Shown here in pieces: positions 7,098-63,032 of a DNA stretch of 64,000 nucleotides. Position numbers and translations under genes: made by a program. This DNA is from an uncultured Desulfobacteraceae bacterium (lineage in GTDB: Bacteria > Desulfobacterota > Desulfobacteria > Desulfobacterales > SKZT01): NCBI GenBank assembly GCA_964478625.1, contig CAYZJH010000014.1, forward strand, positions 7,098-71,097, written 5' to 3'. Each line of letters opens with the position of its first letter. Position 1 is the stretch's first letter. The notes beneath the pieces were generated by a model that saw nothing but the letters and a program-made list of their open reading frames with translations, was not told the origin of the DNA and made no database searches.

Positions 7098-7468
7098 AAC
7101 AAATTCCTCCTAGTGATATGATTTCGAATATTTTCTTGACGGAATCTTTTTATCCCCTGAATGAGATATATTTCATATTCCGACTTTCCATAAATTTCAC
7201 CGAAGGGTCAAGGAAATTTTTGATTATCGTAAAATTGCTCATAACTTAAAATCTTTTGATGGATTGGGTTGTTTTTGCATACCATCCGGGTTACTTTAAA
7301 TTTTGGCCAACAAAATCGCCGTCATTGTAATGCTTTTATTTGATATCAATGATGTTCCTGATAAGAAATTTGAAAATGGTGTTGATTTGAAATCCCTGAA
7401 ATTTTGCAGGTAAAAACTATTACTTGACCAAATGATGCCTAAATGAAACGATTTTGCCAGCAGCTATC

Positions 7469-7541
7469 CGTCATTCCAGCGGAGGCTGGAATCCAGGAGG
7501 TGCAACCAACAATCTGGATACCGGCCTTCGCCGGTATGACA
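7469..7541. repeat. CGTC/TGTC-type REP-like inverted dimer
   Basis: CGTCATTCCAGCGGAGGCTGGAATCCAG ... CTGGATACCGGCCTTCGCCGGTATGACA: two palindromic units in inverted orientation. Confidence 0.75.
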
Positions 7542-7591
7542 TTAAACTCTTTCTCGAAATTAAATCGCTTATTTTAGGTGATGATAACATT

Positions 7592-26352: not shown

Positions 26353-26577
26353 TACAGGCTGACATTATTTTACGGGACATTTACCCTTTACCGAATCTGC
26401 TTGACTCATCCATGATGAGGACACATATTTTAAAAAATTGAGGTCTTAACTTGCCCTTTTCCAGCCTCTTCCGGTTGGGATGGGTTTTTTCGTTCATCAG
26501 ATAATCTTCTATCTGAACTGTCCGGATCCACTTATAAGATCTTTGCAACAGCCCCATACCATTTGAGGAGGTCAGCC

Positions 26578-27675: not shown

Positions 27676-27679
27676 AAAA

Positions 27680-28666: not shown

Positions 28667-28691
28667 TTCAATAAAATACGGAGAAAATAAC

Positions 28692-30029: not shown

Positions 30030-30041
30030 ACCTGAAAGGAA

Positions 30042-33123: not shown

Positions 33124-34746
33124 ATGAACCTGCATAAACCCAACGCCAATGAAGCGTTAAGGACAAAAAACCGTTCCAAGGATGTAGCACCCCAGTCAGG
33201 ACTTTGCAGCAGATGTATCGATGGTTGTAAAGGAAACTGCGACCTTTTCAATGCTACGTTCAGAGGCAGAGAACTGCTTTATCCAGCGCCTTTTGGCGAG
33301 ATCACAGCGGGTGCGGATAAAGATTATCCTGTGGATTATTCCCATCTCAATATTATGGGTTATGCTCTTGGAGCTTCCGGAATCGCGGCTGATTCGGACA
33401 TGGCCACTTTTCCCAAAGTCAGCACGGAAACCGAATACGGCGTCACCCATAAAGTCAAAATGAAAATCCCGATGTTTACCGGTGCATTAGGAAGTACCGA
33501 GATTGCCCGCGCAAACTGGGACCATTTTGCGGTCGGAGCCGCAATTACAGGAATCAGCCTTGTTTGCGGGGAAAATGTTTGCGGAATCGATCCCAGATTG
33601 GAATTTAATTCCAACGGGAAAGTCAAGGAATCTCCGGACATGAGAAGACGTGTTGAATCCTATCGAAAATATTACGAAGGATACGGTGATATTCTCGTAC
33701 AACTCAATGTTGAAGATACACGCCTTGGTGTCGCCGAATATGTTATCGATAAACTCGGAGTGGAAACCATCGAACTGAAGTGGGGCCAGGGAGCCAAATG
33801 TATCGGCGGTGAAATCAAAGTCAATTCTCTGGAAAGGGCTCTTGAACTGAAAAAAAGAGGCTACATTGTTACACCTGATCCGGAAAGCAAAGCCAACCAG
33901 TTAGCTTTCAAAAGCGGTGCCATTAAAGAGTTCGAGCGCCATTCCCGGTTGGGTTTTGTAGATCAGGAAGGTTTCATGAAAGAGGTTGAGCGTATCCGGA
34001 AACTGGGAGCAAAACGTATTACATTAAAAACCGGTGCTTATCCCATGAGAGAACTGGCCATGGCAATACGATGGTCATCGGATGCCAAAATCGATCTTCT
34101 GACCATTGATGGAGCACCGGGCGGTACCGGAATGAGTCCCTGGCGGATGATGGCCGAATGGGGAATTCCTTCCATATATTTACATTCCATGGCTGTAGAG
34201 TTGTGCAACATGCTGGCAGAAAAAGGTGCGTGGGTGCCCGATATTGCATTTGCAGGAGGATTTTCATCAGAAGATCATATTTTCAAGGCGCTTTCTTTAG
34301 GCGCTCCTTATTGTAAAGCCGTATGCATGGGCCGTGCGCTCATGATTCCGGGAATGGTCGGCAAAAATATCGACCGCTGGCTTCGTGGCGAAGATGGCGG
34401 GCTTCCTTCCACGGTTTCAAAATTCGGCACCACCAAAGAAGAAATTTTTGTGGCTTATGCAGAGTTGAAAGAAAAATATGGCAATGAAGTAGATAACCTT
34501 CCCCTGGGAGCGATCGGTATCTACAGTGCCGGAGAAAAAATCCGCGTCGGCCTGCAGCAGCTTATGGCCGGAGCAAGAAAGTGGAGGGTGGATTTCATGT
34601 CTCGGAAAGACCTGGCATCTTTAACCGAAGAAGCTGCTAAGGTGACCGGAATTCCCTATATCATGGATGCCTACCGCGAAGAAGCTATTGAGATCATGAA
34701 CGGCGGCGGAGAGTATACTCAAAACTTTCGGGCCGTTTCCAATTAG
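33124..34746 (+). CDS. FMN-binding glutamate synthase family protein (stand-alone)
   Basis: N-terminal CSRC...C...C; IELKWGQGAK, LKTG, DGAPGGTGM, AGG, MGRA; GGAGG RBS. Confidence 0.85.
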   Translation: MNLHKPNANEALRTKNRSKDVAPQSGLCSRCIDGCKGNCDLFNATFRGRELLYPAPFGEITAGADKDYPVDYSHLNIMGYALGASGIAADSDMATFPKVSTETEYGVTHKVKMKIPMFTGALGSTEIARANWDHFAVGAAITGISLVCGENVCGIDPRLEFNSNGKVKESPDMRRRVESYRKYYEGYGDILVQLNVEDTRLGVAEYVIDKLGVETIELKWGQGAKCIGGEIKVNSLERALELKKRGYIVTPDPESKANQLAFKSGAIKEFERHSRLGFVDQEGFMKEVERIRKLGAKRITLKTGAYPMRELAMAIRWSSDAKIDLLTIDGAPGGTGMSPWRMMAEWGIPSIYLHSMAVELCNMLAEKGAWVPDIAFAGGFSSEDHIFKALSLGAPYCKAVCMGRALMIPGMVGKNIDRWLRGEDGGLPSTVSKFGTTKEEIFVAYAELKEKYGNEVDNLPLGAIGIYSAGEKIRVGLQQLMAGARKWRVDFMSRKDLASLTEEAAKVTGIPYIMDAYREEAIEIMNGGGEYTQNFRAVSN

Positions 34747-35041: not shown

Positions 35042-35458
35042 ATGCTTTCCATTACATGCGATTTTTATTTTGATTCCGCTCATCGTCTTTTCCGAAAGGA
35101 TTTATCCGAGTCCGCCAACCGGCAAATTTATGGAGCATGCTTTGATCTTCACGGCCACAGTTACCGCCTTCAGGTCTGTGTTTGCGGTCATATTGATGCG
35201 AACGGTTGGCTTATTGATTTTTCCGAACTCAAGTCCCTGGTTTCCCGTGAAATTCTTGACAGGTATGATCATGCGTGTCTCAACGATCTTCCCGATTACC
35301 AGGACTGTCCTCCCACTGTTGAGAATATTGCACGCACCCTCTTTAATCAGCTGAGTCCACACCTGAAACGGCCCAACTGCCGGCTTTACAAAATCATTGT
35401 TTATGAAACACGGGATTCACGGGCGGAATGGACCGATGATCATGCTGAAAATTCATGA
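35042..35458 (+). CDS. queD: 6-carboxy-5,6,7,8-tetrahydropterin synthase
   Basis: FDSAHRL, C.DLHGHSY, DH..LN, PTVENIA, VYET. Confidence 0.93.
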   Translation: MLSITCDFYFDSAHRLFRKDLSESANRQIYGACFDLHGHSYRLQVCVCGHIDANGWLIDFSELKSLVSREILDRYDHACLNDLPDYQDCPPTVENIARTLFNQLSPHLKRPNCRLYKIIVYETRDSRAEWTDDHAENS

Positions 35459-36059
35459 AATTTTTTATTCCTTGCAGGGGGAAGGTCCCTTTATGGGGAG
35501 GCCCGCTGTTTTTATACGGTTGTCCGGATGCGTGGAACCTTTCTGTGAGTTTTGCGACACACCTGAGGCACTGACGCCAGGTAAGCCAATGGCATTGGAC
35601 AAAATTATGCAACAAGTAAACAGCTATGGGGCTTCTTTTGTGGTTATTACCGGGGGTGAACCTTTTGTTCAATGGGAGCATGGGTTAAAGCAGTTATCTC
35701 AAAAACTGCTTGAAAACGGCATGAGTATTCAATATGAAACCAGCGGAAAAGCGGGTATCCCCGAAAGCGCAAACGGTGTGGTGGTGCTTTCACCCAAAGA
35801 CGGCCTGTGGCCGTCTCCTGAAATACTTGCCAGGGCTGACTTTCTGAAACCGATCATTGGTCATGATCCGGAAAAAACATTGGATAAAGTAAGGCGTTCC
35901 GGATTTCCGGCAAACCGAGTCTGGCTCATGCCTTTGGGCCGAAACCGTGAAGAGCAAATCAGACGGATGCCCATGGTTTGGGATCTTTGTGTCCGCTTTG
36001 GATACTGTATATCTCCCAGACTCCATATTCTGACCCATGACCGTAAAAAAGGAATTTGA
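35442..36059 (+). CDS. queE: 7-carboxy-7-deazaguanine synthase (radical SAM)
   Basis: EIFYSLQGEG, VFIRLSGC, CDT, ITGGEP, ETSG, LSPK, PRLH. Confidence 0.92.
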   Translation: MLKIHEIFYSLQGEGPFMGRPAVFIRLSGCVEPFCEFCDTPEALTPGKPMALDKIMQQVNSYGASFVVITGGEPFVQWEHGLKQLSQKLLENGMSIQYETSGKAGIPESANGVVVLSPKDGLWPSPEILARADFLKPIIGHDPEKTLDKVRRSGFPANRVWLMPLGRNREEQIRRMPMVWDLCVRFGYCISPRLHILTHDRKKGI

Positions 36060-36105
36060 TGTTAATGTGTGCACATAGTGTAAAAAAGATGCAAGGGCTC
36101 TTCTG

Positions 36106-36795
36106 ATGAAACAAGACATAGTGGATACGGTCATTGTATATTCAGGCGGTATGGATTCCACCGTGTTGCTTTTTGATCTGCTCGCCGGTGGAATAAAAAC
36201 GGCTGCCATCAGTTTTGACTACGGTTCTCGTCATAACCACCGGGAACTTCCCATGGCCAGGGCTTTTTGTAAATCCCTGAACATATCCCACCAGCTCGTG
36301 CCTCTTGCGTTCATACCGGATCTTTTTAAATCAGCTCTGCTCTGCACCGGAGATCCGGTTCCCGACGGTCCCTATGATGTTTCAACAATGAAACAGACGG
36401 TAGTTCCATTTCGCAATGCGATCCTTTTGGGTATTGCCGTGGGATATGCCGAATCCATTGGAGCATCCCAGGTCGTACTGGCATCCCACGGAGGTGATCA
36501 CGCCATCTATCCGGATTGCAGGCCTGCATTCAACCGGGCATTTGCAGAGGCTGCCCGTCTTGGAACAGAAAACAAAGTCGTTGTCCGTTTTCCCTATGAA
36601 GGGCTTGACAAGCGGGATATTGGTGATTTAGGCCGCCGGCTTGGGGTCGATTTTGGTCAAACATGGACCTGTTACAAGGGAGGAGAATATCATTGCGGGT
36701 TATGCGGTGCCTGCCGGGAACGCAAATATGCTCTTCGCCATAATCAAGGAATGGATCCCACCTTCTACCTGAATTCCGGAACCCCCGATGAATGA
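36106..36795 (+). CDS. queC: 7-cyano-7-deazaguanine synthase
   Basis: YSGGMDS, FDYGSRH, VPFRN, YPDCRP, TWTCY...HCGLCGAC. Confidence 0.95.
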   Translation: MKQDIVDTVIVYSGGMDSTVLLFDLLAGGIKTAAISFDYGSRHNHRELPMARAFCKSLNISHQLVPLAFIPDLFKSALLCTGDPVPDGPYDVSTMKQTVVPFRNAILLGIAVGYAESIGASQVVLASHGGDHAIYPDCRPAFNRAFAEAARLGTENKVVVRFPYEGLDKRDIGDLGRRLGVDFGQTWTCYKGGEYHCGLCGACRERKYALRHNQGMDPTFYLNSGTPDE

Positions 36796-37621
36796 TACGC
36801 CATACCTGACCGATCTTCCTCTTGGCCGTCCTGTATCCGCCGGCAGTACCTATGATCCGGACCAGTTGCGCCCCATACCCCGTAAATTCGGCAGGACAAC
36901 TATTGGAATCATCAATGGAAGACCTCTTCCCTTTTTAGGAGAGGATATCTGGAATTGCTGGGAATTAAGCTGGCTGGATTCCAATGGGAAACCTGCTATC
37001 GCCGTTGCAGAAATCAGGATACCGGCGACCACACCCAATATGGTGGAATCAAAATCCATGAAACTTTATATCAACAGTTTCAGCATGACCCGACTGGAAA
37101 GCCCGAAAATGGTGCGTCAAATCCTTGCCCGAGATATCAGTCGTATTACCGAAGGCCCGGTCTTTGTTCGACTTATACTTCCGGAAGATTTCGGAAAAAT
37201 TCCAATCAACGAACCACAAGGAATCTGCATTGATCAACAAAACATAAACATAACGGAATTCAGGGTGAATCCGGATTTACTGATTGTGGAAAAACAACGG
37301 GTATCTGAAACACTTTTTTCCCGTCTGATCAGAACCATTTGCCCCGTAACCGGCCAACCGGACTGGGCAACGGTTTACCTCACCTACACCGGACCACGCA
37401 TTCATCCGGATTCCTTGCTTCGCTATTTTATCAGTTTCAGGCAACACCAAGGATTTCACGAATCCTGCGCGGAAATGATGTTTTGTCAAATCTTCCAGGC
37501 TTGTAAACCTGATAAACTGACTTTGTCAGCCCGTTTTACCCGAAGGGGCGGAATTGACATTAATCCTTTCAGAAGCACGGAAATAAGTTCGGGTCCCAAT
37601 CTTAGAGATTTTCGACAGTAA
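36788..37621 (+). CDS. queF: NADPH-dependent preQ0 reductase (two-domain type)
   Basis: DIWNCWELSWL, ESKSMKLY, CPVTGQPDW, FHESC, TRRGGIDINP. Confidence 0.95.
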   Translation: MNDTPYLTDLPLGRPVSAGSTYDPDQLRPIPRKFGRTTIGIINGRPLPFLGEDIWNCWELSWLDSNGKPAIAVAEIRIPATTPNMVESKSMKLYINSFSMTRLESPKMVRQILARDISRITEGPVFVRLILPEDFGKIPINEPQGICIDQQNINITEFRVNPDLLIVEKQRVSETLFSRLIRTICPVTGQPDWATVYLTYTGPRIHPDSLLRYFISFRQHQGFHESCAEMMFCQIFQACKPDKLTLSARFTRRGGIDINPFRSTEISSGPNLRDFRQ

Positions 37622-41033: not shown

Positions 41034-42257
41034 CTATAGATTGGAAGAGAGTTTCAGCTGGTTCTTATTGAGGGTTAAACCGAAATTTTCCTGAATCAGT
41101 TCATGAGGTCCGTCGGAAAAAGGAATAAAAATCAGCCTTGCCTTTTCCGGTCGAATTTTGATGCCATGCAGGAGAGGCAAATAATGGCTTGAGGGGCATG
41201 CAAAGGAAGCAAAATTGATTTTCATGCATTCAGCAGCTTCAGTAACCGGTAACGTGATCGGAAGGATTTGCCTTGACGGAAGTTTTTCCATATGCTCATT
41301 TCGAGGCTGAACCATGGTAAGATTTCGGTTCAGACGGAGAAATACCTTCGGAGGCACTTTGAACGCCATACACCAGAAATAGAAATCTGTCTTATAATCC
41401 TCGGGCATCGGGACTTTAGGCAAATTAGCGACCCGTATCAGGTCCGCATAGGAATTCAAATGAACTCCTTCGACTGCTGCCTTGATTCGCCAGAAGGGCA
41501 GGAAAATATCTCCGGGCATTTTCAGGGTTGCAAACTTAATCCGGGTGAGGCTTTCGCCCTTTGCAGCCCAGACCGTATTGCAATTTTTGCAAAGGAGCAC
41601 CAGTGAATCCCTCTCCCCGGAAAGGTCCCATCCGCAATTGGGACATAGGGTCGGAATAAAAACGAGCCGCCATTTTGGTGGACCACCCGGAAAAGAATCG
41701 ACACCGAAATCATCCGGAAGAGAACCGGTTACCGCTTTATTCAAGACTGCATCAATCATTTGCTTTTTAACATAAAATGGCGCATAAACAATGCTTAACG
41801 TCTCTCCCACAAAATCCTGATGAAAAACAGGTTCAGATGCATTTTGGCTGAATCTTCGAATAAAAATTTTCATGGCATCATCGCGAGAAAAGTTCGGATG
41901 TAAAAACCGACCTGGTGATTCAGGCAAAACAAATTTAAGTCGAAGGGTTTGAGTCCGGAATCCAAGGGATGCCGGAAAAAAATTGGATTGAACTCCCTGA
42001 CAACTGATATCCATGAAGCGGTGTTGCACCCCATCGGCCAAGGATGAAAAAAGCATCCCTTTAAATCGCCAATAGGGCACATAGATCAGCTGACTTGTTT
42101 CAGAAGTGTTATTGGGAAGCATGTATCTGAAATAGGGATGTTGAACAAGATATGATGACACCCGGCAATAGGGGCACCTGACCAAACGATCTGACTCTTC
42201 AAGGACGGAAGGGGCTCCGCACTGAGGGCATTGATGCTCAATCAAAAAGGGGGCCAT
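41034..42257 (-). CDS. Zinc-ribbon hypothetical protein (YdjG-like)
   Basis: CPQCGA, CPYC, CPNCG, CKNC and two YVPYW/FLPFW-type motifs. Confidence 0.7.
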   Translation of the reverse strand: MAPFLIEHQCPQCGAPSVLEESDRLVRCPYCRVSSYLVQHPYFRYMLPNNTSETSQLIYVPYWRFKGMLFSSLADGVQHRFMDISCQGVQSNFFPASLGFRTQTLRLKFVLPESPGRFLHPNFSRDDAMKIFIRRFSQNASEPVFHQDFVGETLSIVYAPFYVKKQMIDAVLNKAVTGSLPDDFGVDSFPGGPPKWRLVFIPTLCPNCGWDLSGERDSLVLLCKNCNTVWAAKGESLTRIKFATLKMPGDIFLPFWRIKAAVEGVHLNSYADLIRVANLPKVPMPEDYKTDFYFWCMAFKVPPKVFLRLNRNLTMVQPRNEHMEKLPSRQILPITLPVTEAAECMKINFASFACPSSHYLPLLHGIKIRPEKARLIFIPFSDGPHELIQENFGLTLNKNQLKLSSNL

Positions 42258-42259
42258 TT

Positions 42260-43384
42260 TTAGAGCTTATCCCCACACTGGTTGCAATATTGGGAATCCG
42301 CAAGATTTTCGCTTCCGCATTGCTTGCAGAATTTTGGTTCAGGTTTTTCCTCAACCCGATGCCCACAACGGGAACAGAATCTGGCGTTGGGAGTCAGGTT
42401 TTTTTTACAGTTCAGACATTGTGAAAATATCAGTTGCTGATGTCCGCAATGGGGGCAAAACTTGGATTCCGACAAAATCGGATTTTTGCATTCCGGGCAG
42501 ATAATATCATGTTGAGAATATTGCTGCTTTTGTCCTGCAGTTGCAAAAAATTGAGAAAACATGGCAGGCATCATCAACCCCACACCCATACCCATGCCGG
42601 CATTGGCACTGCCATCTGCTTCGGCAGCTTTTTCAACAGCCATTGCCGCTTTCATTTTCAGCAGTTTATTCATATCATCAAAAAGTCCTAACCGGCTTCG
42701 GTCGTCCATTGACTTTTGTACTTCCGGAGGAGGTGTAATGGAATTCATATAAAGATGGGTCAACGCAATGCCAAAATGGGCAAAATCATCGTGCAGACGT
42801 TTGGCCAGATTTTGGGAAAGCTGGTCATATTTTGAAGGAAGATTCAAAATGGAATCAATGGTTTCGCCCATGAGATCATTGAAACGGGATACAATCACAA
42901 GGTTCAGGTATTCTTCTATTTCAGCGGTGTTATACATGCCTTGCGTACCCACCAGACGGTTGATAAAAAGTACCGGCTGAACCACCTGAATATTAAAAAC
43001 ACCAAAAGCCCTTAAACGAATCAGGCCCAGTTCTTTATCCTTAAACGCTACCGGATCGCGGGTTCCCCATTTCAAGTTGGTAAATGTCTTTAAATTGACA
43101 AAATAAACTTCGGCTCTCAGTGGGCTTGTCAGACCCCACGGGAGACTTGCAATTTTAGTTAAAATCGGAATGTTCGCCGTTTTGAGGGTATGCCTCCCCG
43201 CAGGAAATGCTTCTACCGCCTTACCTTTGTAAAAAAAGACCCCGGCCTGGCTTTCTCTGACGGTCAGCTGCGCCCCGTATTTAATTTCTCCGGAACCTGT
43301 TTCCGGTATTCGATGTACCATCTCTTTTCCGGTCTCATCGAACCACTCAATAACCTCCAAAAAGATCACGTTGTTTGTTCCCAT
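42260..43384 (-). CDS. SPFH (Band 7-like) protein with C-terminal zinc ribbons (YdjI-like)
   Basis: QLTVRESQ, KWGT.DP, LRAFG, GMGMG linker, repeated C..C/F.C..CG; start refined to ATG 43384. Confidence 0.88.
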   Translation of the reverse strand: MGTNNVIFLEVIEWFDETGKEMVHRIPETGSGEIKYGAQLTVRESQAGVFFYKGKAVEAFPAGRHTLKTANIPILTKIASLPWGLTSPLRAEVYFVNLKTFTNLKWGTRDPVAFKDKELGLIRLRAFGVFNIQVVQPVLFINRLVGTQGMYNTAEIEEYLNLVIVSRFNDLMGETIDSILNLPSKYDQLSQNLAKRLHDDFAHFGIALTHLYMNSITPPPEVQKSMDDRSRLGLFDDMNKLLKMKAAMAVEKAAEADGSANAGMGMGVGLMMPAMFSQFFATAGQKQQYSQHDIICPECKNPILSESKFCPHCGHQQLIFSQCLNCKKNLTPNARFCSRCGHRVEEKPEPKFCKQCGSENLADSQYCNQCGDKL

Positions 43385-43706
43385 ACGCCAACCTCTTTTT
43401 CCGGAATGACCCGGGTTGATCAAATTGTAATTGTACCTTGGATTATCGATCTGACAAAGACGGTGGATTTTTTGCCGACTTATTCTTTTTAACGGGTTAT
43501 AATCAATGCTATTTATTCTAGTCAACTCGAAATTGGTTTTTTTGGATTTTTTTCGATTCTTGTCGATAGAAATATGGGTGCCAATGATTTATGATAATTA
43601 AGAAAATGAATTCTTGGCTGACTATTTTGATTCAGAAGAACTTGCAGAGTATTTCTAATCAGTAATGGAACGTGTGAGATCGTGCTATTTGGATCAAGGA
43701 GGAGAT

Positions 43707-44303
43707 ATGGGAAAAATCATCTATGGAATTTGCCTTTTCTTTTTACCGTTGATCTTCTGTTCGTGTACCTTGCAACCAATGGCACCGGTTGAATGGCGAT
43801 ATGAGAAGTCAGCTATCACCCTTCATGTAACTGCCGATCCCCTGTTAAATCTTTACAGAGGCAGCGCTCATGCTCTCCATTTATGCATTTACCAACTCAT
43901 GGATCCCGATCCCTTTAATCGCCTGTCCCAAAACTCAGAGGGAATTTCGGAGCTTCTTCAATGTCGGGGGTTCGATTCCAGTGTGGCAAATGCCAGGGTT
44001 TTATCCCGTTCAGGAATCCAGCCCGGCGATTCTTTGACATTCATGCTTGACCGGACTCAAGGAGCTAAATATTTAGGTATTGTGGCGGGATATCAGATTT
44101 TGGAACAAGAGCGAACAGTTCGACTGATAAAAATCCCTGTGACGGTTGAAATCGCAATCGACGGCTTGCTTCAAATTGAAAGGATACAAAAACCTGCCAT
44201 ATTTGGGATTGATCTTCATCTGGGCCCCCAGTATATTCAAAAGACGGTGGTCATGAAATTGAAACAAAAAAATGCAGAAACCGAAAGAGTCATTTTCCAA
44301 TAG
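43707..44303 (+). CDS. tssJ: T6SS lipoprotein TssJ/VasD-like
   Basis: GGAGGAG RBS, lipobox-like IFCSC, ADPLLNLY, LCIYQL, A.YLGIVAGY. Confidence 0.82.
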   Translation: MGKIIYGICLFFLPLIFCSCTLQPMAPVEWRYEKSAITLHVTADPLLNLYRGSAHALHLCIYQLMDPDPFNRLSQNSEGISELLQCRGFDSSVANARVLSRSGIQPGDSLTFMLDRTQGAKYLGIVAGYQILEQERTVRLIKIPVTVEIAIDGLLQIERIQKPAIFGIDLHLGPQYIQKTVVMKLKQKNAETERVIFQ

Positions 44304-44329
44304 AAATGATACCTGAAAAAGAAAAAAAC

Positions 44330-45007
44330 ATGCGATTGACCGACTGTTTTATCGATTTAATTGCCTATGTCTCCTATTTTTTGAAAGAGTTGAATACGAA
44401 TCAACCTGACTTTGATGATGTAAGGTCTGACATCGAAAAACTGATCCTGGGATGTGAAAACCATTTGGGAACAGGCAGATTTTCCCGCGAAGACTATGAT
44501 TTGGCCCGGTTTGCCGTTTTTGCCTGGGTGGATGAAAGTATTTTAAACTCAACCTGGAAAGACCGAACACGATGGTTGGGTCAACAGCTTCAAAATGTTT
44601 ATTATCATGTCTTCGACGCCTCAGAAATTTTTTTCGAAAACTTAAACACACTTAAGCTTCACCAAAAGGACATCAGGGAGGTCTACCTTTTATGTTTAGC
44701 CATGGGCTTTAAAGGCCGTTATTGTAATCAACACGATGAGGTTACTCTTAAACAACTGAAAGCTTTTAATCTAGCAGCCATAACAGGGGCATCCTCGGGG
44801 GTACAACCCTTAAAAACCGAAAAACTTTTTCCCGACGCTTACAACGATGATGATCCCAAAAATCATGCTCCCTTGCATAAATCCGGAATTTTCTCTTCCA
44901 CACTTTTTTGTGTTACGTTTCCAATCCTATGTTGCATAGTTCTTTTCCTCCTATTTCGTTTTATTTTAGTTAATGCCGGAGATAATCTGTTAAGGATGAT
45001 GCCATAA
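44330..45007 (+). CDS. tssL: DotU/TssL family protein (no OmpA domain)
   Basis: MRLTDCF, ARFAVFAWVDE, W....LQ, FFENL, EVYLLCLAMGFKGRY, C-terminal TM (alternative start 44306). Confidence 0.9.
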   Translation: MRLTDCFIDLIAYVSYFLKELNTNQPDFDDVRSDIEKLILGCENHLGTGRFSREDYDLARFAVFAWVDESILNSTWKDRTRWLGQQLQNVYYHVFDASEIFFENLNTLKLHQKDIREVYLLCLAMGFKGRYCNQHDEVTLKQLKAFNLAAITGASSGVQPLKTEKLFPDAYNDDDPKNHAPLHKSGIFSSTLFCVTFPILCCIVLFLLFRFILVNAGDNLLRMMP

Positions 45008-48000
45008 ATGACACAGGTTTCGAGAAAATTATTTAAAGCGGTTTTCATTCCAGCTTCGGCTTTTTTGATTATACTGGTAGGAGTCAGGGTGGCATTGTTG
45101 CACGGATTGCCCTGGTGGATGGTTCTTTTTATCCTGTTCAGCAGTTTGGCCGGAATCATCTTTGTGAAAACAATTTTGCAAAGGTATCAAGAGCAAAACT
45201 TTCTTCAAAAAGTCATGGATCTATATGATTCTTTTCCCGAAACCACCAATGACGGCGAAAATGAAAATACAGTAGAATTTCGTGATCTTTTAACAAAAGT
45301 AATGCAGGAAATCCGAAAATTTCAGCAAAAAAAACCGGGAAATCCTTTATCTCTTCTCCCCTGCTATTTGATCATTGGCGAAAGCGATTCAGGAAAAACA
45401 ACAGCCATAAAAAATGCCGGCCTGACACCTCTTTTTCCGGAACTAAATCTTAATTCCGGCATTCCCCTGACAAAAAATTGCCGCTGGTGGTTTTTTGAAG
45501 AGGCAATTATTCTCGATGCAAAAGGGAAATTTGTCGTTCTTAAAGGCAAAAAACCTTATAATCTCGAGTGGCAGAAGCTCTTTTCACTGTTGACCATCTT
45601 TCGGAAAAAAGATCCGATCAACGGACTTGTGGTAACCGTAGCCGCCGATAGGTTGATCAACCCTCAGATGGAAATTCTCGAAAATGACGGCAGAAAAATT
45701 CGCAGGCAAATTGATGAATTGATAGGGGTTCTGGGCTCTACTTTTCCGATATATCTAATGGTGAGCAAGTGTGACCTCATACAAGGCATGACCCAATTTT
45801 GGAGCAATTTTACCGACCAAAAACTTGAACAGGCCATGGGTGTGCTTAATCAGGATATGACTAGAAATGCCATAACATTTCATGAACAGGCGTTTCAAAA
45901 AATTGCAGATCGACTAAAATATTTGAGACTATTGATTTTTCAACGTTCCAACTCAAAGATCGCCCCGGAACTTCTGCTTTTTCCTGATGAGTTTGAACGG
46001 ATTAACCCTGGATTGGATCGTTTTATTAGAGCCATTTTTCATGATGACTATCTTCAAAACACTCCCATTTTACGTGGCATTTTTTTCAGCAGTGGTCATC
46101 AGGAAGGAACCCCTTATTCCCATTTTATGAATTCCATGGGATTTACCCAAGACAAAGAGACCCTTCCAGGAACAAATAACAACCTTTTCTTAAAAGACTT
46201 TTTCTCAAGAATTCTCCCAAATGACACAGCACTGTCTGCCCCAACCCAAAAGGCAGTCGAATGGAATCGATGGCCCCGAAATTTAGGACTGACCTCATGG
46301 ATAGCGATCACGTTTACAGTATGCGGATTACTCAGCATTTCATTTGCCAAAAATCTGGAAGCCATAAGATATGCAGCCGGTGATTTTACTTCTCCACCTG
46401 TGTTACAGGGAGAAATTTCTTCTGATTTAGCTACCATGGACCATTTTCGTCAGGCTATTCTGAATATTGAACTGCGAAATCATACATGGTGGATTCCTCG
46501 CCTTATGCTTACAGAAAGTTTGACTATAGAAAAAAAAATCAAAGAAAAATATTGTTCAACGTTCAAAAATGTATTTTTGGTATCATTTGACAAACAGATG
46601 CTGGAACTCCTTTCCGGTTTTGATGGGATTACGCAAGATGAAGAAATTGGACAACATGCGGCACATCTGGTCTATCGGATCAATCTGTTAAAAGCCCGAC
46701 TTGAAGATGAAAACCTCGAAGTGCCCGTTAAAAAACTTCAACTTTCTTATAAAACCGATAGGGCTTCAGAAAAACAGCCGTTTATTCCTGAACTTTATGA
46801 AAACTTTTATACCACTTATTCACATTACCTAATTTGGCTGGATGATACCAGTCAGTTAAAAAATGAAATCGATACCCTTCAGAGTTGGCTTAAAAGCCTA
46901 TTGGATTTAAGACCCAATGAAATGCAATGGCTTGTGGCATGGATAAATCAAAACCCCATGATTTCAGATATTTTTCTCCAAGACTTTTGGATAGGACCCC
47001 CCCATAAAACAAGCAACTATCCGACGACCTTCAAAAATTCTGCTGATAAAAAGGAGAAGAAAATTGCAGCAGATACCGGTGCAACCATCCGACGGGCATA
47101 TACTTCCAAAGGAAAAGAAATGATCGAGTCCTTTATTGGGGAAATGGAAAAAGCCCTTCCAAACCCAAATTTGCTTTCAACCCGTAAAGCTGAATTTGAA
47201 CAATGGTACAGGGAATCCTATTTTAATGAATGGCTGGCATTTGGAGAATATTTTTCCAATGGTGTCGGCCTTCTTGATGGAAAGTTGCAATGGCAGAAAA
47301 TGGCCTCAATTATGGATACCGATAACAGTCCATTCTTTGAGCTTCTTGAAACAATGGCTGAAGAGCTAAAGCCCATTTGTACACAACATTGCCAGGATCT
47401 GCCGCCATGGGCAGACCTTGTTTTTAAATTTCATATGATCGGGGAAAATATGGACTCCGAAACAACAACCCGAACATCTGAGCCAACCCAATCCATGATG
47501 ATTGCCGCAGAAGCCTATGAACAATACAAAAACGCACTTCAAGAAATATTGCCGATCGTCACATCCAGCGACCTTGCTTTCCAGATGACAGGGATAACTT
47601 TTGGAGAAGATCCGGTTGGAAACACTTCTCCATTTATCAAGGCTCAAGATGCCGTTCAAAATATGAAAAAAGCCCTGGAAAATTCAGAAACTGAATCGTC
47701 CATGGTCTGGGAATTGATTAAAGGACCCTGGGAGTTTTTATGGGAGTACGCGATACAAGAAACCTCTTGTCATATCGAAGATTTATGGAAAAAATATGTA
47801 TTTGAGGATTTTCAGGACATCTCTGATATTAACCTGGTGGCAGATTTATTGATAGGCCCGAATGGTTTGGCGACAAAATTTGCTGATGGACCGGTAAAGC
47901 CTTTTGTCCTTCACAACCCGAACAAAGGATATTTTTCAAAGAAAACCTTCGAGAAAAAAATCCCCTTTGAAAATACTTTTTTAACCTTTCTGAACCGTGG

Positions 48001-48508
48001 AGACCAGTATCTTCAATACAAAAGATTAGAATCTCGGCAAAAAATCCGATCCAATTATTCGGTTAATATCAAAGGGTTTCCCACTGATGCCAATCCTGAA
48101 GCTAAAATCAAACCTCATGCCACCCATCTCAGGGTGAAATGCGCTAACCGGGTTTTCAGTTTAACCAATTTGAATTATCCCATTCAAAAGACAATCAACT
48201 GGTCTCCGGAAAACTGTGTTGAAGTTGCTTTCACCATTGAGGTGGATGAATTGAGTCTGGTAAAAAAATATCTGGGAAATGATGCATTCCCAAATTTTTT
48301 AAAAGACTTTTCAGCGGGAACCAAGACCTTCTATCCTATGGATTTTCCTCAAAATCTATCAGGCTTGAACCGGCTGGGAATCACCTATATCAGAGTGAAT
48401 TACGAGTTCAGTAATCATGAACCGTTGCTGACCTTTCAGAGAATCAATCAAAAAAGGCCCGTATTGCCGAATTTACCTAAAAATATTACACAATGCTGGG
48501 ACAACTGA
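45008..48508 (+). CDS. tssM: IcmF/TssM family protein
   Basis: N-terminal TMs, Walker A IIGESDSGKTT, WWFFEEAIILD, PINGLVV, FPIYLMVSKCDLIQG, LRGIFFSSG, TM, long periplasmic domain. Confidence 0.9.
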   Translation: MTQVSRKLFKAVFIPASAFLIILVGVRVALLHGLPWWMVLFILFSSLAGIIFVKTILQRYQEQNFLQKVMDLYDSFPETTNDGENENTVEFRDLLTKVMQEIRKFQQKKPGNPLSLLPCYLIIGESDSGKTTAIKNAGLTPLFPELNLNSGIPLTKNCRWWFFEEAIILDAKGKFVVLKGKKPYNLEWQKLFSLLTIFRKKDPINGLVVTVAADRLINPQMEILENDGRKIRRQIDELIGVLGSTFPIYLMVSKCDLIQGMTQFWSNFTDQKLEQAMGVLNQDMTRNAITFHEQAFQKIADRLKYLRLLIFQRSNSKIAPELLLFPDEFERINPGLDRFIRAIFHDDYLQNTPILRGIFFSSGHQEGTPYSHFMNSMGFTQDKETLPGTNNNLFLKDFFSRILPNDTALSAPTQKAVEWNRWPRNLGLTSWIAITFTVCGLLSISFAKNLEAIRYAAGDFTSPPVLQGEISSDLATMDHFRQAILNIELRNHTWWIPRLMLTESLTIEKKIKEKYCSTFKNVFLVSFDKQMLELLSGFDGITQDEEIGQHAAHLVYRINLLKARLEDENLEVPVKKLQLSYKTDRASEKQPFIPELYENFYTTYSHYLIWLDDTSQLKNEIDTLQSWLKSLLDLRPNEMQWLVAWINQNPMISDIFLQDFWIGPPHKTSNYPTTFKNSADKKEKKIAADTGATIRRAYTSKGKEMIESFIGEMEKALPNPNLLSTRKAEFEQWYRESYFNEWLAFGEYFSNGVGLLDGKLQWQKMASIMDTDNSPFFELLETMAEELKPICTQHCQDLPPWADLVFKFHMIGENMDSETTTRTSEPTQSMMIAAEAYEQYKNALQEILPIVTSSDLAFQMTGITFGEDPVGNTSPFIKAQDAVQNMKKALENSETESSMVWELIKGPWEFLWEYAIQETSCHIEDLWKKYVFEDFQDISDINLVADLLIGPNGLATKFADGPVKPFVLHNPNKGYFSKKTFEKKIPFENTFLTFLNRGDQYLQYKRLESRQKIRSNYSVNIKGFPTDANPEAKIKPHATHLRVKCANRVFSLTNLNYPIQKTINWSPENCVEVAFTIEVDELSLVKKYLGNDAFPNFLKDFSAGTKTFYPMDFPQNLSGLNRLGITYIRVNYEFSNHEPLLTFQRINQKRPVLPNLPKNITQCWDN

Positions 48509-48605
48509 CCCCCTGAAATCATTTATCATGAGCCTATTAGAAAAACCCGCAGTTACCCCCCTTTTTTGGGCGAATTAATATACAGATTACCTGGTTAATC
48601 GCAGA

Positions 48606-48660
48606 AACCGACCGGTTCGGTTGTTGACAAAACTGAAAATACCTGATAGAAATTTTCTAT
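48606..48660 (+). promoter_or_regulatory. Candidate promoter with two palindromes upstream of the selenopeptide gene
   Basis: AACCGA-N5-TCGGTT (48606-48622), TTGACA (48624-48629), 17 nt, TAGAAA inside the palindrome ATAGAAA-T-TTTCTAT (48646-48660). Confidence 0.45.
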
Positions 48661-48722
48661 TCTCCAAAATTTTAAAATAGATTTTTTCGATGTCATTAAA
48701 CCGAATATTCCGGGAGGTGATC

Positions 48723-49061
48723 ATGGAAAAGAAAGACCTAAAAAAATTGCTTGCAGGTTTTGGAATCGCCGGCTTGATCAGTATGGGAGGAGTGACTCTT
48801 CCAGGGGTTCATGCAGGTAGCAGCTGAGGAGCCAAACCCAGTGCGGGCGGCACTGAACAACAACAAAAAGCACCAGCCGGAAGTGGCTGAGGCGCCAAAA
48901 AAGAAAGCGCAGTTAGCGCAGAAGAAAAAAAGCAACAGCAGGAGCAACAGCAACTAGATCAGCAAGAGGCTGAGGAAAAGGCCGAAGAAGTCCTGGAAAA
49001 AGAAGGAGAACCTGTTGAAAAACCAGCCGGAAAAAGCGGTTGAGGGGGCAAAAAACAATAA
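48723..49061 (+). CDS. sbtA: Selenocysteine-containing RiPP precursor (selenobacteriocin/SbtA-like), three Sec
   Basis: GGAGGTGA RBS; MEKKDLKKLLAGFGIAGLISMGGVTLPGVHAGSSUGAKPSAGGTEQQQKAPAGSGUGAKKESAVSAEEKKQQQEQQQLDQQEAEEKAEEVLEKEGEPVEKPAGKSGUGGKKQ then TAA; TGA at 48825, 48888 and 49041, all in frame. Confidence 0.88.
48839..48855 (+). other. SECIS-like hairpin for Sec35
   Basis: CAGTGC-GGGCG-GCACTG, 11 nt after the TGA. Confidence 0.72.
48907..48919 (+). other. SECIS-like hairpin for Sec56 (weak)
   Basis: GCGC-AGTTA-GCGC, 16 nt after the TGA. Confidence 0.5.
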
Positions 49062-49078
49062 TCATGCAGGATGCATGA
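49062..49078 (+). other. SECIS-like hairpin for Sec107, located in the 3' UTR
   Basis: TCATGC-AGGAT-GCATGA, 18 nt after the TGA and just past the TAA. Confidence 0.7.
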
Positions 49079-49213
49079 CAAATAATTGAAATACAGGATT
49101 TAGCAGAACCGTTTCTCAATGCAGCTGTTTTTTTTGGGAACTGAATTGAACGGTGGCTCTTTGATTTGTATTGATTTATTAACGCCTCTTTCCGGAAAAA
49201 GATTCTCCAAAAG

Positions 49214-49248
49214 TCAGGAGTGCAAAGCAACTGCTTATGCACTCCTGA
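49214..49248. other. Long intergenic hairpin
   Basis: TCAGGAGTGCA-AAGCA-AC-TGCTT-A-TGCACTCCTGA. Confidence 0.7.
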
Positions 49249-49272
49249 TCCTTGCGCCAATTTAATCAATGA

Positions 49273-50850
49273 ATGGATAAAAAACCATACCCCATATGCT
49301 TCGAACTTTTGCCGCATCTGGAAAATAAATGGCAAAAAGATCGGCCGCTGTCGGACATGCTGCGTGAGAACCCGGAAATGTGCGACCATTACCCTTTTCT
49401 GGCGGACCTGGCAAGAATCGAGGAAGCCGTATACCGACTGCTGAAATCGCCTCCACAGATCCCTGTGCCTCTATTGCGCCGAATGGTCAACCCGGCCCTT
49501 GAATTGATTCCGCTCAACTGGCTGAATCTGCCTGAATTTCTGTCCGACAGGAGCGTTGTCCCGAAACCTGGTAAGAACTATGTTCTTGTTTTGATAAAAC
49601 CGGGGGAAAATCATGTGGAGATCCGCAATGCCATGGCCAGAGATCTTCTGGCACTTAAAATCATAGTCGAAGACATTCACCCACGCAATGCGGCCTCTGA
49701 AGGTGGAGTTTCGGCGGGAGCAATTGATGATCTTCTATACCGTTCCCAACAGCAGGGGTTGATCATGGTTCCACCCTCAAAAATCCGGCGATCTGAAGAC
49801 TTCCCCAAAGGCGAGATCAAGGATCTTGAATTTTTCTCGTCGCCAACCTTTACTCTTCAGTGGCACCTTACCCAGGTTTGCGATTTAAATTGCCGCCATT
49901 GCTACGATCGCAGCGATCGTCAAGAGATGAATTTAAACCAGGCAATCGGAATCCTGGACGATCTTTATGACTTTTGCCGGGAGCATCATGTTTTTGGCCA
50001 AGTGTCTTTTTCCGGCGGTAATCCCTTGCTCTACCCCCACTTTGATCAAATTTACCGTGAAGCTGCTGACCGCGGTTTTATGACTGCTGTTTTAGGCAAT
50101 CCCATGCCCCGCAGCAGAATTGAAAGGATGCTGTCGGTTCAAAAACCTGAATTTTACCAAATCAGCATTGAGGGCTTAAAAGATCACAATGATTATATCC
50201 GTGGTCAGGGACACTTTAACCGGGCCCTTGATTTTCTGAAACTACTGGGTGAGCTGAACGTCTACCGGATGGTGATGCTGACCCTGACTCGCGACAATTT
50301 GAATCAGGTTATTGATCTGGCCGATCAATTGCGCGAACTCACCGATGTGTTCACTTTTAACCGGTTGGCGGGAGTGGGACGCGGCGCTGAACTTTCAGCC
50401 GCACCACCTAAACTATATCCCGAATTTTTGGCCCGTTACCTTGATGCGGCCAAAACAAACCCTTGCATGGGACTTAAAGACAATCTTTTTAACCTGCTTC
50501 GGTGGCAACATGACCCTCGTACCCTGGATGGCGGTTGCGCAGGCTACGGTTGCGGAGCCGCTTTCAATTTCATGGCGTTGCTCCCGGATGGAGAGGTGCA
50601 TGCATGCCGCAAACTCCCGTCGTTTCTCGGCAATATTTATCACCATCGACTCAGCGATATCTACCACAATTCTCTATCCCGCAGATATCGTTCCGGATCA
50701 TCGGTCTGCAAGGACTGCCCGATTCGGCCGGTATGCGGTGCATGTCTTGCCGTAGGATATGGATTTGGCCGTGATATATTCAAAGAGCCGGATCCTTATT
50801 GTTTCCGAAACCGGATGGAAAATCGGTGTGGAAAATCCGCGATTCTTTAA
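49273..50850 (+). CDS. sbtM: Radical SAM/SPASM peptide maturase (SbtM-like) with N-terminal accessory domain
   Basis: LQWHLTQVCDLNCRHC, SGGNP, GCGAA...LPDGEVHACRK, C..C..RPVCGAC...DPYC; N-terminal YPFLADLARIE. Confidence 0.85.
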   Translation: MDKKPYPICFELLPHLENKWQKDRPLSDMLRENPEMCDHYPFLADLARIEEAVYRLLKSPPQIPVPLLRRMVNPALELIPLNWLNLPEFLSDRSVVPKPGKNYVLVLIKPGENHVEIRNAMARDLLALKIIVEDIHPRNAASEGGVSAGAIDDLLYRSQQQGLIMVPPSKIRRSEDFPKGEIKDLEFFSSPTFTLQWHLTQVCDLNCRHCYDRSDRQEMNLNQAIGILDDLYDFCREHHVFGQVSFSGGNPLLYPHFDQIYREAADRGFMTAVLGNPMPRSRIERMLSVQKPEFYQISIEGLKDHNDYIRGQGHFNRALDFLKLLGELNVYRMVMLTLTRDNLNQVIDLADQLRELTDVFTFNRLAGVGRGAELSAAPPKLYPEFLARYLDAAKTNPCMGLKDNLFNLLRWQHDPRTLDGGCAGYGCGAAFNFMALLPDGEVHACRKLPSFLGNIYHHRLSDIYHNSLSRRYRSGSSVCKDCPIRPVCGACLAVGYGFGRDIFKEPDPYCFRNRMENRCGKSAIL

Positions 50851-61385: not shown

Positions 61386-63032
61386 ATGGCTAACGGAAAC
61401 GATTACTCAGGCGGAGGCGGACCCCAAATGGGGCCTCAGGATGAACAGGCTTTTCTTGCATATTTAAAAAATACATTTTCACAGCTTCCGAATGAAATTT
61501 CTCTCATTCTGTTTTCCAAACCCGGCGATCAGGATATTTTCAGTGAAGCCAACCGAAGAGTGATTCGTGCATTCAGAGAACTTACGGACAAAATCAAATT
61601 TCGGGAATTCAGCCTTGATCATAAAGAGGCCCAAAAATATCAGGTGGAATTTCCATCGACGCTTCTGATTGCACCAGACCGTTACAATATCCGATGGATT
61701 GGAGCGCCGGTTGGTGAAGAGGGGCGTACATTTCTGGAAACATTGCTCCTGGTCGGCATGGGTAAAAGCAATCTGAACGAGCAGGCTGCAAAAATTATCC
61801 GACAGATCGACACCCCGCGGGATATCAAAGTGTTTGTAAGTCCATCCTGCCCGTATTGCCCGCAACAGGCGGTAAACGGAGTTAAGGCTGCTATTGAAAA
61901 TCCTGAGATGATTTCCCTGGAGTTGATCGATATCCAATGCAGTCCGGAACTGGCCGATCAATATGCGGCTCACAGTGTTCCCCAGACCTTTGCTAACGAT
62001 ATGATCATCGCCATGGGTGCCCAACCTGAGGAACTTTTTGCATCTTCCGTGGACAAGCTGGAACAGCAGACCATTTTTATACCGGATAGTGACGCCGAAT
62101 TAGTGGAACTGGATGTATTGATTGTAGGAGGCGGACCTGCAGGATTGACTGCCGGCATCTACGCAGCCAGGAGCGGACTCAATACCGCCATCGTTGAAAG
62201 GGCCGCATTGGGTGGCCAGGTAGCAACCACCCCCATTGTGGAAAACTATCCGGGGTTTACTTCTGTGGGTGGAAAAACCCTGGTGGATATCATGGTAAGC
62301 CATGCCCTGGAATATGTGCAGATTTTTCAGGGGGAGGAAGTTATCGAAGTCGAAACAGGGTTTCCTATCAAGGTGACCACCACAAGGCGAAGGTTTGAAA
62401 CCAAAACGCTTTTACTTGCAACAGGCGCTACATACAAGCATCTTGGAATCCCGGGTGAAGATCGCCTAGCCGGAAGGGGGGTCAGCTATTGCAGTACATG
62501 TGACGGACCTTTGTTTAAAGGCAAAAAGGTGATTATGGTCGGTGGTGGAAACAGTGCAGTCACCGAGGCTTTACATCTTCATAATATCGGAGTGAATGTC
62601 ACCCTGATTCACCGGAGAGACACCTTAAGGGCACAGGAGTTCTTAAGCAAACAGCTTGTGGAAAACAATATCCCGGTCATCTGGAATACGGAAGTCAAAG
62701 AAATATTAGGCCAAGAAAGGGTGGAAGCTGTTAAACTGCTCAACAACAAAACAGGGGAAACCAGTACCATGGATATCAATGGCGTATTTATCGCCATCGG
62801 ATATGAACCTGCTGTAGGACTGGCCCAAAAAATCGGCGTCGAATTAAATGATGATGGGTACATCAAACAGGATGGAAGACACAGAACCAATATACCGGGG
62901 GTCTATTCAGCAGGAGATGTGGAAGGCGGTTTCAAACAGATCGTCACCGCAGCAGGACAGGGATCGGAAGCAGCGATTGTCATTTTCGAAGACCTGATCA
63001 ATCCGTATTGGAAACAGAAAAAAGCGGTTTAA
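61386..63032 (+). CDS. Thioredoxin-fold (CPYC) plus thioredoxin reductase fusion, AhpF-like
   Basis: FVSPSCPYCP; GGGPAG, ENYPG, GVSYCSTCDG, GGGNSA, GDV....KQIVTA. Confidence 0.9.
   Translation: MANGNDYSGGGGPQMGPQDEQAFLAYLKNTFSQLPNEISLILFSKPGDQDIFSEANRRVIRAFRELTDKIKFREFSLDHKEAQKYQVEFPSTLLIAPDRYNIRWIGAPVGEEGRTFLETLLLVGMGKSNLNEQAAKIIRQIDTPRDIKVFVSPSCPYCPQQAVNGVKAAIENPEMISLELIDIQCSPELADQYAAHSVPQTFANDMIIAMGAQPEELFASSVDKLEQQTIFIPDSDAELVELDVLIVGGGPAGLTAGIYAARSGLNTAIVERAALGGQVATTPIVENYPGFTSVGGKTLVDIMVSHALEYVQIFQGEEVIEVETGFPIKVTTTRRRFETKTLLLATGATYKHLGIPGEDRLAGRGVSYCSTCDGPLFKGKKVIMVGGGNSAVTEALHLHNIGVNVTLIHRRDTLRAQEFLSKQLVENNIPVIWNTEVKEILGQERVEAVKLLNNKTGETSTMDINGVFIAIGYEPAVGLAQKIGVELNDDGYIKQDGRHRTNIPGVYSAGDVEGGFKQIVTAAGQGSEAAIVIFEDLINPYWKQKKAV

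Follow-up and report, generated by a model that had tools for sequence, protein, structure and literature searches.

An SbtA-type precursor peptide with three predicted selenocysteine residues, encoded next to its SbtM maturase in an uncultured Desulfobacteraceae bacterium

What is encoded by a reading frame that TGA codons interrupt three times? The question is raised by a 64,000-nucleotide stretch of DNA from an uncultured Desulfobacteraceae bacterium (GenBank assembly GCA_964478625.1, contig CAYZJH010000014.1), which we call the window and number from its first letter. At 48723-49061 on its + strand lies a frame of 112 codons, in which TGA stands at codons 35, 56 and 107 (first bases at 48825, 48888 and 49041) and which ends with a TAA at 49059-49061. 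Translated directly, the frame gives the segments MEKKDLKKLLAGFGIAGLISMGGVTLPGVHAGSS, GAKPSAGGTEQQQKAPAGSG, GAKKESAVSAEEKKQQQEQQQLDQQEAEEKAEEVLEKEGEPVEKPAGKSG and GGKKQ, the first three each followed by a TGA and the last by the TAA; there is no Cys. The best explanation of the locus as a whole, and one that we consider very probable, is an sbtA/sbtM gene pair in which all three UGA codons are read as selenocysteine (Sec; U in sequence motifs), the Sec residues are converted to selenooxazoles, and the peptide is exported by the Sec secretion pathway and would bind soft metals. The gene anatomy, the family membership, the conservation of the UGA codons and of a hairpin after each, and the interchange of Cys and Sec among homologues are all direct observations on the DNA analyzed here.

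The frame itself bears the marks of a genuine gene. An initial annotation, made from the window alone, had described the three in-frame TGAs, the final TAA, the lack of Cys and a strong ribosome binding site, and translation of the frame and the Shine-Dalgarno sequence listed in Table 1 bear this out. It had further argued that the TGAs share one repeated motif and could not be independent nonsense mutations. The DNA motif that surrounds them, AGYRGYTGAGGNGSCAAA, occurs three times in the window, always within the sbtA open reading frame (ORF), versus no occurrence in 100 dinucleotide-preserving shuffles, one mismatch being allowed. The arrangement is a real feature and not a product of chance. 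The annotation's statement that the gene is missed by ORF calling was accurate in one respect: the gene callers applied to identical metagenome contigs end the product at the first TGA. The gene is not invisible to them, as they report a stub of 45 residues (equivalent to window positions 48690-48827), which carries the Pfam family PF27804 GSU1558_StbA-like; the read-through product has no match in our local copy of Pfam. sbtA illustrates how a gene with several Sec codons is curtailed by standard ORF calling, with a 45-residue stub being reported in place of a 112-residue precursor.

The SbtA/SbtM system was reportedly predicted by Haft and Basu in 2011, and it was to this system that the initial annotation assigned the leader and the adjoining radical S-adenosylmethionine (SAM)/SPASM gene. 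Searches with profile hidden Markov models (HMMs) lead to the same family. With U replaced by C, residues 1 to 27 of the sbtA product score 49.2 bits against NCBIfam model TIGR04081 (curated cut-off, 30.5), covering profile positions 1 to 27 of 27. The title of this model is [quoted passage not shown] where RiPP denotes a peptide that is ribosomally synthesized and modified post-translationally. The gene at 49273-50850 on the + strand scores 640.2 bits against TIGR04082, "thio(seleno)oxazole modification radical SAM maturase SbtM" (cut-off, 350). It has the same orientation as sbtA and starts 211 nt downstream of it, a layout with counterparts in about 30 of the 42 sbtM loci described below. 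The radical SAM motif CxxxCxxC is present in SbtM as CDLNCRHC, the Pfam families PF04055 Radical_SAM and PF13186 SPASM are both matched, and the closest solved structures are SPASM peptide maturases (SkfB, 6efn, and the CteB type, 5wgg), while the N-terminal stretch of about 190 residues has no Pfam match even at E values of up to 10. SbtM was characterized by Lewis et al. in 2021, as summarized in two later accounts (PMC9204691, PMC11002830). According to these summaries, the enzyme acts on a Gly-Cys or Gly-Sec unit, which loses four hydrogens by way of hydrogen abstraction from the beta-carbon, and the product is a thio- or selenooxazole that absorbs near 304 to 313 nm. The modified residue still reacts with iodoacetamide, i.e., a nucleophilic chalcogen is retained (PMC9204691). 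The locus is a further member of a published family, for which the HMMs and the enzyme chemistry have already been described.

Table 1. Features of the sbtA/sbtM locus, in window coordinates
Feature	Position	Strand	Basis or remark
Shine-Dalgarno sequence, GGAGGTGA	48713-48720	+	GGAGG-to-ATG gap of 5 nt
sbtA, thio(seleno)oxazole RiPP precursor, 112 codons, three predicted Sec codons, TAA	48723-49061	+	Translation and TIGR04081
Leader, 31 residues, predicted Sec-type signal peptide	48723-48815	+	n-region MEKKDLKK, hydrophobic core, V-H-A motif
Predicted Sec codon 1, UGA, codon 35, context GSS-U-GAK	48825-48827	+	TGA kept in L001-L004
Putative SECIS-like hairpin 1, CAGUGC-GGGCG-GCACUG	48839-48855	+	Coding (SAGGT); begins 11 nt after UGA 1
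Predicted Sec codon 2, UGA, codon 56, context GSG-U-GAK	48888-48890	+	Translation, context motif, alignment
Putative SECIS-like hairpin 2, (AA)GCGC-AGUUA-GCGC(AG)	48905-48921	+	Folding and homologue alignment
Acidic Q/E/K-rich linker, residues 66-94	48918-49004	+	Predicted single helix
Predicted Sec codon 3, UGA, codon 107, context KSG-U-GGK, stop five codons later	49041-49043	+	Translation, context motif, alignment
Putative SECIS-like hairpin 3, UCAUGC-AGGAU-GCAUGA	49062-49078	+	Non-coding, directly after TAA
sbtM, radical SAM/SPASM maturase	49273-50850	+	TIGR04082; Pfam Radical_SAM and SPASM

Homologous loci show how the TGA codons have been maintained. Scanning one genome per species for relatives of SbtM yielded 42 loci, mainly from Desulfobacterales and other Thermodesulfobacteriota, together with single metagenome-assembled genomes (MAGs) labelled Nitrospiraceae, Spirochaetota and Victivallales. 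About 30 of the loci carry a leader-bearing ORF just upstream of sbtM on the matching strand, and these SbtA homologues contain from zero to three in-frame TGAs in S-G-U-[G/S] contexts. Across 62 Sec sites of the family, Ser occupies position -2 at 56, Gly occupies position -1 at 51 and Gly or Ser occupies position +1 at 58; the Ser that precedes Sec in core 1 of the window has equivalents at five sites. In the four nearest homologues (L001 to L004), whose SbtM proteins are 62-70% identical to that of the window, the GGAGG and the ATG of sbtA are unchanged and the frame is preserved, with indels of 3 and 12 nt. All three TGAs are kept in L001, L003 and L004. At the second site of L002 (around 851-900), the TGA has become CCA and the hairpin has decayed to about two pairs, an apparent natural test that links the UGA to its hairpin.

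In other lineages the same motif is built with Cys. The initial annotation had pointed to homologues with Cys aligned to the TGA positions as a way of examining the Sec reading, and Cys is indeed found in the equivalent motif of L036, L005, L040, L028 and L024. The Cys-only SbtA of L036 contains SSCGAK three times, the Cys counterpart of GSS-U-GAK in the window; the cores of L005 and L040 have multiple SSC units; and L028 and L024 each combine one Sec with one Cys. The L036 gene (3621-3830, + strand), which comes from the MAG labelled Victivallales, also encodes a lipobox and has no hairpins after its Cys codons. It suggests that the SbtA/SbtM system of that lineage works with sulfur. As for the number of Sec residues, the annotation had singled out three dispersed Sec cores as notable at this locus. 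This needs tempering: three is the commonest count among 30 curated precursors (three Sec in 13, two in 9, one in 5 and none in 3), and the triple-Sec layout is typical of the family. A separate observation concerns L015, where a second SbtA-like ORF (3206-3451, + strand) lies between sbtA and sbtM, with a good leader and a Q/E/A/P-rich core that has neither Cys nor Sec; it may be a degenerate paralogue, or serve as a decoy or a regulator.

Each TGA of sbtA is followed, starting 11-18 nt past the UGA, by a small hairpin that has a GC-closed, A/C-G-rich loop and resembles a selenocysteine insertion sequence (SECIS). The family-wide survey covered 67 curated in-frame TGAs from 27 precursors, with 13,637 other TGA triplets in the same DNA serving as controls. 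A 6-bp stem with a 5-nt loop follows 59 of the 67 Sec TGAs versus 9.9% of the controls, with the consensus nGGUGC-AGGUn-GCACCn, and the loop starts 16-24 nt past the UGA at 60 of the 67 sites. When the hairpin is defined strictly, with C-G as the closing pair and G as the second loop base, it is found after 57 of the 67 Sec codons versus 0.84% of the controls, and after none of the 18 core Cys codons without an adjoining TGA. Close homologues display compensatory variants of hairpin 1 (CAGUGC/GCACUG, CGGUGC/GCACCG and GGUAC/GUACC, with compensatory changes in L001 and L003) and of hairpin 2 (GCGC/GCGC versus GACGC/GCGUC). Hairpin 3 is the same at all 17 bases between the window and L001, L003 and L004 and has a single change, in the loop, in L002, whereas the flanks diverge among these loci. 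Other homologues with a C-terminal Sec likewise have the hairpin after the stop codon, in non-coding DNA. Taken with the conserved TGAs and the Cys-for-Sec homologues, the hairpins support the claim of the initial annotation that the three in-frame TGAs of sbtA are Sec codons and not stops.

Since hairpins 1 and 2 lie within coding sequence, the RNA would explain the peptide modules that recur after Sec in the family (GAGGT, GAGST and SAVSA), and these modules are missing from Cys-only precursors. In the window, the two hairpins would dictate the peptide motifs SAGGT and SAVSA. Some homologues have Sec codons in pairs 9-15 nt apart (L025, 3631-3680; L017, 3758-3800; L009, 3262-3310; and L026, 3719-3770), and here the first UGA is 29-32 nt away from the loop and the second 17-21 nt. 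Such pairs appear to share one downstream hairpin, an unusual arrangement of two codons per SECIS.

The leader has the anatomy expected of an exported protein, with the basic n-region MEKKDLKK, a hydrophobic core of 18 residues and V-H-A before Gly32; it resembles a signal peptide of the Sec type that ends in a site for signal peptidase I, VHA/G. At the equivalent leader end, 15 of the 30 curated homologues have a lipobox-like L/M-x-G-C. The SbtA of the window, being Cys-free, does not conform to the lipobox pattern [LVI][ASTVI][GAS]-C, and the family is probably divided between soluble and lipid-anchored forms. The signal-peptide anatomy and the lipoboxes of the homologues together make export and cleavage of SbtA plausible. 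In the alignment of leaders, the n-region motif DLKK(L/I)LAG is conserved well beyond what is usual for signal peptides, and it is because of this unusually high conservation that an HMM built on the leader only is effective. This conservation hints that the leader may double as the recognition sequence for SbtM. Beyond the second Sec codon, the initial annotation had expected the acidic linker to be helical. A single-sequence AlphaFold2 model of residues 57-106 agrees weakly, having been built without an alignment: it places one long helix over residues 66-94 (fragment residues 10-38), with block values of the predicted local distance difference test at 94-96.

We propose that the pathway would run as follows. 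SelB-dependent insertion would put three Sec residues into SbtA at the UGA codons, and SbtM, acting in the cytoplasm, would oxidize each (Gly/Ser)-Sec unit to a 5-selenooxazole with the loss of four hydrogens. The modified peptide would then be exported by the general Sec pathway and cut by signal peptidase I after Ala31, giving a product of 81 residues that would be largely disordered or helical; half of the homologues would instead have a peptide anchored to lipid by the lipobox Cys. Reliance on general secretion fits with the gene neighborhoods, because all-against-all ORF clustering of the 42 loci revealed no dedicated protease, exporter or immunity gene conserved near sbtA, and no conserved neighbor at all besides sbtM and its antisense shadow ORFs. 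Finally, the three selenolate-bearing heterocycles could bind soft metals such as copper. The model for this last step is provided by bufferins (PMC11626156): these RiPPs have Sec signal peptides, and their 5-thiooxazoles act as copper chelators in the periplasm. By analogy we infer that the SbtA product would be a periplasmic selenooxazole metal-binding peptide, and on the same basis we favor soft-metal binding over the roles considered below.

Several points count against this interpretation. Among the 42 ORFs of at least 200 residues in the window and in its tRNA and Rfam scans, we found no selA, selB, selC or selD, and we assume from the SECIS-like elements, and from the taxon, that the source genome decodes Sec. 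An exact search with 59 nt gave no match in the genome collection, and the identical SbtM occurs only on metagenome contigs of at most 12 kb, the identical contig being present in runs SRR30684747 and SRR26619698/9. ARAGORN and Rfam searches of the whole window, the latter at gathering thresholds, detected no tRNA, tRNA-Sec, SECIS family or other RNA. The window hairpins taken singly are thermodynamically unremarkable (fold z scores from +0.6 to -2.6, with hairpin 3 at -2.0 to -2.6); the SECIS evidence is comparative in nature. Hairpin 2 forms just 4 pairs in the window, against 5 or 6 in L001, L003 and L004. Across the family, changes occur on both sides at all six stem pairs and 96.9% of the cells are paired versus 75.9% in shuffles, counts of pairing and covariation that are inflated by the choice of the best-paired 17-mer at each site and that the control rates offset only partly. 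When a covariance model of the family hairpin was run over both strands of the window, the sbtA hairpins ranked first (hairpin 1, 19.9 bits), second (hairpin 3) and fourth (hairpin 2), all three being among the 53 training sequences of the model. Core 1 would present Ser-Sec to SbtM, in contrast to the Gly-Cys/Sec motif of the published assay (PMC9204691). As the signal peptide of bufferins is dispensable for their modification (PMC11626156), the dual role of the SbtA leader is speculative. The chemistry of SbtM is taken from the literature, and export, the cleavage site and metal binding are steps that we infer.

Other explanations of the locus have to be set against a selenooxazole peptide that binds soft metals. 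The one that survives best, and that we still consider unlikely, retains the modified periplasmic peptide but gives it a redox or selenium-handling function, as an electron shuttle, a scavenger of peroxide or polysulfide, or a carrier or store of selenium, with chelation not its chief task. Sec typically serves in redox catalysis (PMC13188914), the hosts are sulfate- or metal-reducing anaerobes, and the iodoacetamide reactivity of the modified residue indicates that the nucleophilic chalcogen is kept (PMC9204691). However, the cassette has no partner oxidoreductase, the Sec residues are 20-50 residues apart and form no CxxU or UxxC pair, and the chemically nearest characterized products, the 5-thiooxazole bufferins, are copper chelators (PMC11626156). 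It is distinctly improbable that SbtA is instead a secreted antimicrobial peptide, a true selenobacteriocin, and not a metal binder. The original family name, "Selenobacteriocin, TIGR04081" (PMC13188914), and the small, exported and post-translationally modified product, as in many bacteriocins, speak for such a role, but sbtAM conserves neither an immunity gene nor a dedicated ABC (ATP-binding cassette) exporter nor a leader protease across the 42 loci. The core, too, is of low complexity, carries many charges and varies in length, its S-G-U-G units being the only conserved part, and half of the homologues resemble lipid-anchored lipoproteins, which suits a cell-associated role better than that of a diffusible toxin.

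We regard it as highly improbable that the UGAs are true stops, in which case only a peptide of 34 residues (45 as called) would be made and the downstream frame would be fortuitous or a decayed pseudogene. Such an account would agree with the automatic gene calls on the identical contigs, with the lack of Sec machinery in the window and with the use of TGA as an ordinary stop elsewhere in it: TGA terminates 9 of the 42 long ORFs, including the gene directly upstream, and the nine products have full-length family matches, a TssM-like gene being among them. On the other hand, the frame is conserved past each TGA in homologues whose SbtM proteins are 62-70% identical, with indels in multiples of three; a common motif surrounds every TGA; Cys stands at the equivalent positions in other lineages; and 57 of 67 such TGAs, versus 0.84% of control TGAs, have the conserved hairpin downstream. 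A product of 34 residues would, moreover, be a bare signal peptide that offers the neighboring SbtM nothing to modify. An alternative genetic code with UGA as Gly or Trp, of which a Gly reading would look natural in the Gly/Ser-rich contexts, has a negligible probability and is effectively refuted by the nine TGA-terminated ORFs, which point to the standard code in the window; homologues have Cys, not Gly or Trp, at the UGA positions, and we know of no UGA reassignment in Desulfobacterales and allied lineages.

Reading the UGAs as Sec and the product as an exported selenooxazole peptide, we tentatively raise a broader idea, which is possible but doubtful at present: the SbtA family may be an unrecognized class of exported selenium metallophores, made by a radical SAM enzyme as an anaerobic counterpart of bufferins, and released through the Sec pathway or, in half of its members, lipid-anchored. 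Its leader would double as the recognition sequence of the maturase, its GAGGT and SAVSA modules would be imposed by SECIS RNA, and the member described here would hold three selenooxazole ligands on a flexible helical scaffold. If true, a physiological role would be known for a selenium-containing RiPP for the first time, and selenium would be employed for metal chelation in anaerobes. At the least, the locus adds a well-supported member to a family with known enzyme chemistry. In accounts of the family (PMC9204691, PMC11002830, PMC13188914) we found no mention of three Sec residues as the usual number in sampled precursors; of a separate fdhF-like mini-SECIS for each Sec codon, located in some cases after the stop and in no case in Cys versions; or of the periplasmic or membrane-anchored role, like that of the copper-binding bufferins, to which the signal-peptide leaders and the lack of an exporter or protease point.

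sbtA is flanked by genes for TssJ/L/M-like proteins, SbtM, a DnaJ-domain protein and Peptidase_MA_2. The TssJ-like, TssL/DotU-like and TssM/IcmF-like trio lies directly upstream (43665-48508, + strand). The TssM-like protein scores 251.8 against a curated cut-off of 388, with only the N-terminal half of the model matched, and no other core genes of a type VI secretion system were recognized in the window; the trio may represent a membrane complex that is either orphan or divergent. A link between this secretion system and sbtAM was considered and rejected, as tblastn matched the TssJ/L/M-like genes to none of the 42 sbtM loci, and we treat them as unrelated local neighbors. Transcribed divergently from the trio, within 41034-43525 (- strand), are a gene for an SPFH/Band-7 protein with several C-terminal zinc ribbons (42260-43525) and, after it, a gene whose 407-residue product has Cys-pair motifs and matches a zinc finger only faintly. 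A scan for promoters and terminators from 48400 to 49400 gave nothing above chance on the + strand, and no convincing attenuator was found between sbtA and sbtM. The tssM-like gene and sbtA are separated by a gap of 214 nt. TTGACA within it (48624-48629), followed after 17 nt by a weak TAGAAA, is no more than a promoter candidate, and the inverted repeat AACCGA-CCGGT-TCGGTT just upstream of TTGACA (repeat and hexamer at 48606-48629, + strand) could be an operator or mark the end of the upstream transcript.

Farther away, the gene at 61386-63032 (+ strand) encodes an AhpF-N-terminal-like thioredoxin-fold domain fused to a thioredoxin reductase; TIGR02187 "PDO_seleno_TRX," a family that includes selenoproteins, is matched by its N-terminal part, and the redox motif is here of the Cys form, CPYC. 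A search for further TGA-interrupted frames in the window, flanked on either side of the TGA by 50 codons or more, returned 32 candidates, all of which resembled shadow frames. Housekeeping functions are represented by a complete pyruvate dehydrogenase-type operon (E1 alpha, E1 beta, E2 and E3; 26563-31478, + strand) and a queE-queC-queF cluster for preQ1 biosynthesis (35397-37621, + strand). The ORFs at 7454-10306 (950 residues) and 33124-34746 (540 residues), both on the + strand, have no NCBIfam match at E values of 1e-5 or below.

Compared with the SbtA/SbtM system as published, the locus has the same two-gene cassette, in which both models are passed, the same placement of Sec in motifs of the S-G-U-G type, a hairpin after each TGA, and a host within the range of Geobacter and Desulfobacteria-type anaerobes. 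It differs in its number of Sec residues, which is "at least two SeCys" in the perspective by Bandarian (PMC9204691) and two in a 2026 selenoproteome review (PMC13188914), whereas the SbtA of the window has three together with a long acidic linker that is predicted to be helical. It also differs in the Ser that replaces Gly before Sec in core 1, and its signal peptidase I type end, VHA/G, is not universal in a family of which half have a lipobox. The hairpins compare with the SECIS of Escherichia coli fdhF, GGUUGC-AGGUCU-GCACC, an element that we confirmed in 5,419 genomes as TGA, 11 nt and GGTTGCAGGTCTGCACC. Stem and loop core are as in the SbtA consensus, and the spacing of 11 nt is that of hairpin 1; unlike the fdhF element, the sbtA hairpins have no bulged U and no long lower stem, and the window loops are GGGCG, AGUUA and AGGAU instead of AGGUCU, with no Rfam match. 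Judged by these features, the sbtA hairpins are putative SECIS elements of the type of the SelB-binding apical hairpin of fdhF.

Two other groups of RiPPs invite comparison at the level of the product. Those described under the title [quoted passage not shown] (PMC13056109) recall the 15 of 30 SbtA homologues with a lipobox-like end, which suggests lipidation of the modified peptide; they differ in enzyme class, and the Cys-free SbtA of the window would not be lipidated in that way. Bufferins are closer in chemistry, as Cys in the bufferin and Sec or Cys in SbtA would each become a 5-thio(seleno)oxazole (PMC11626156). BufA, however, is modified by a multinuclear non-heme iron oxidase (MNIO, DUF692) together with DUF2063, that is, by an oxygen-dependent enzyme and not by radical SAM/SPASM chemistry (PMC11626156), and bufferins fold as small disulfide-containing proteins that use Cys only. 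No MNIO (DUF692) or DUF2063 gene flanks sbtA at this locus. The relation between the two would be one of function, without family membership, and the SbtA peptide would be the anaerobic, oxygen-independent and selenium-using counterpart of the bufferins.

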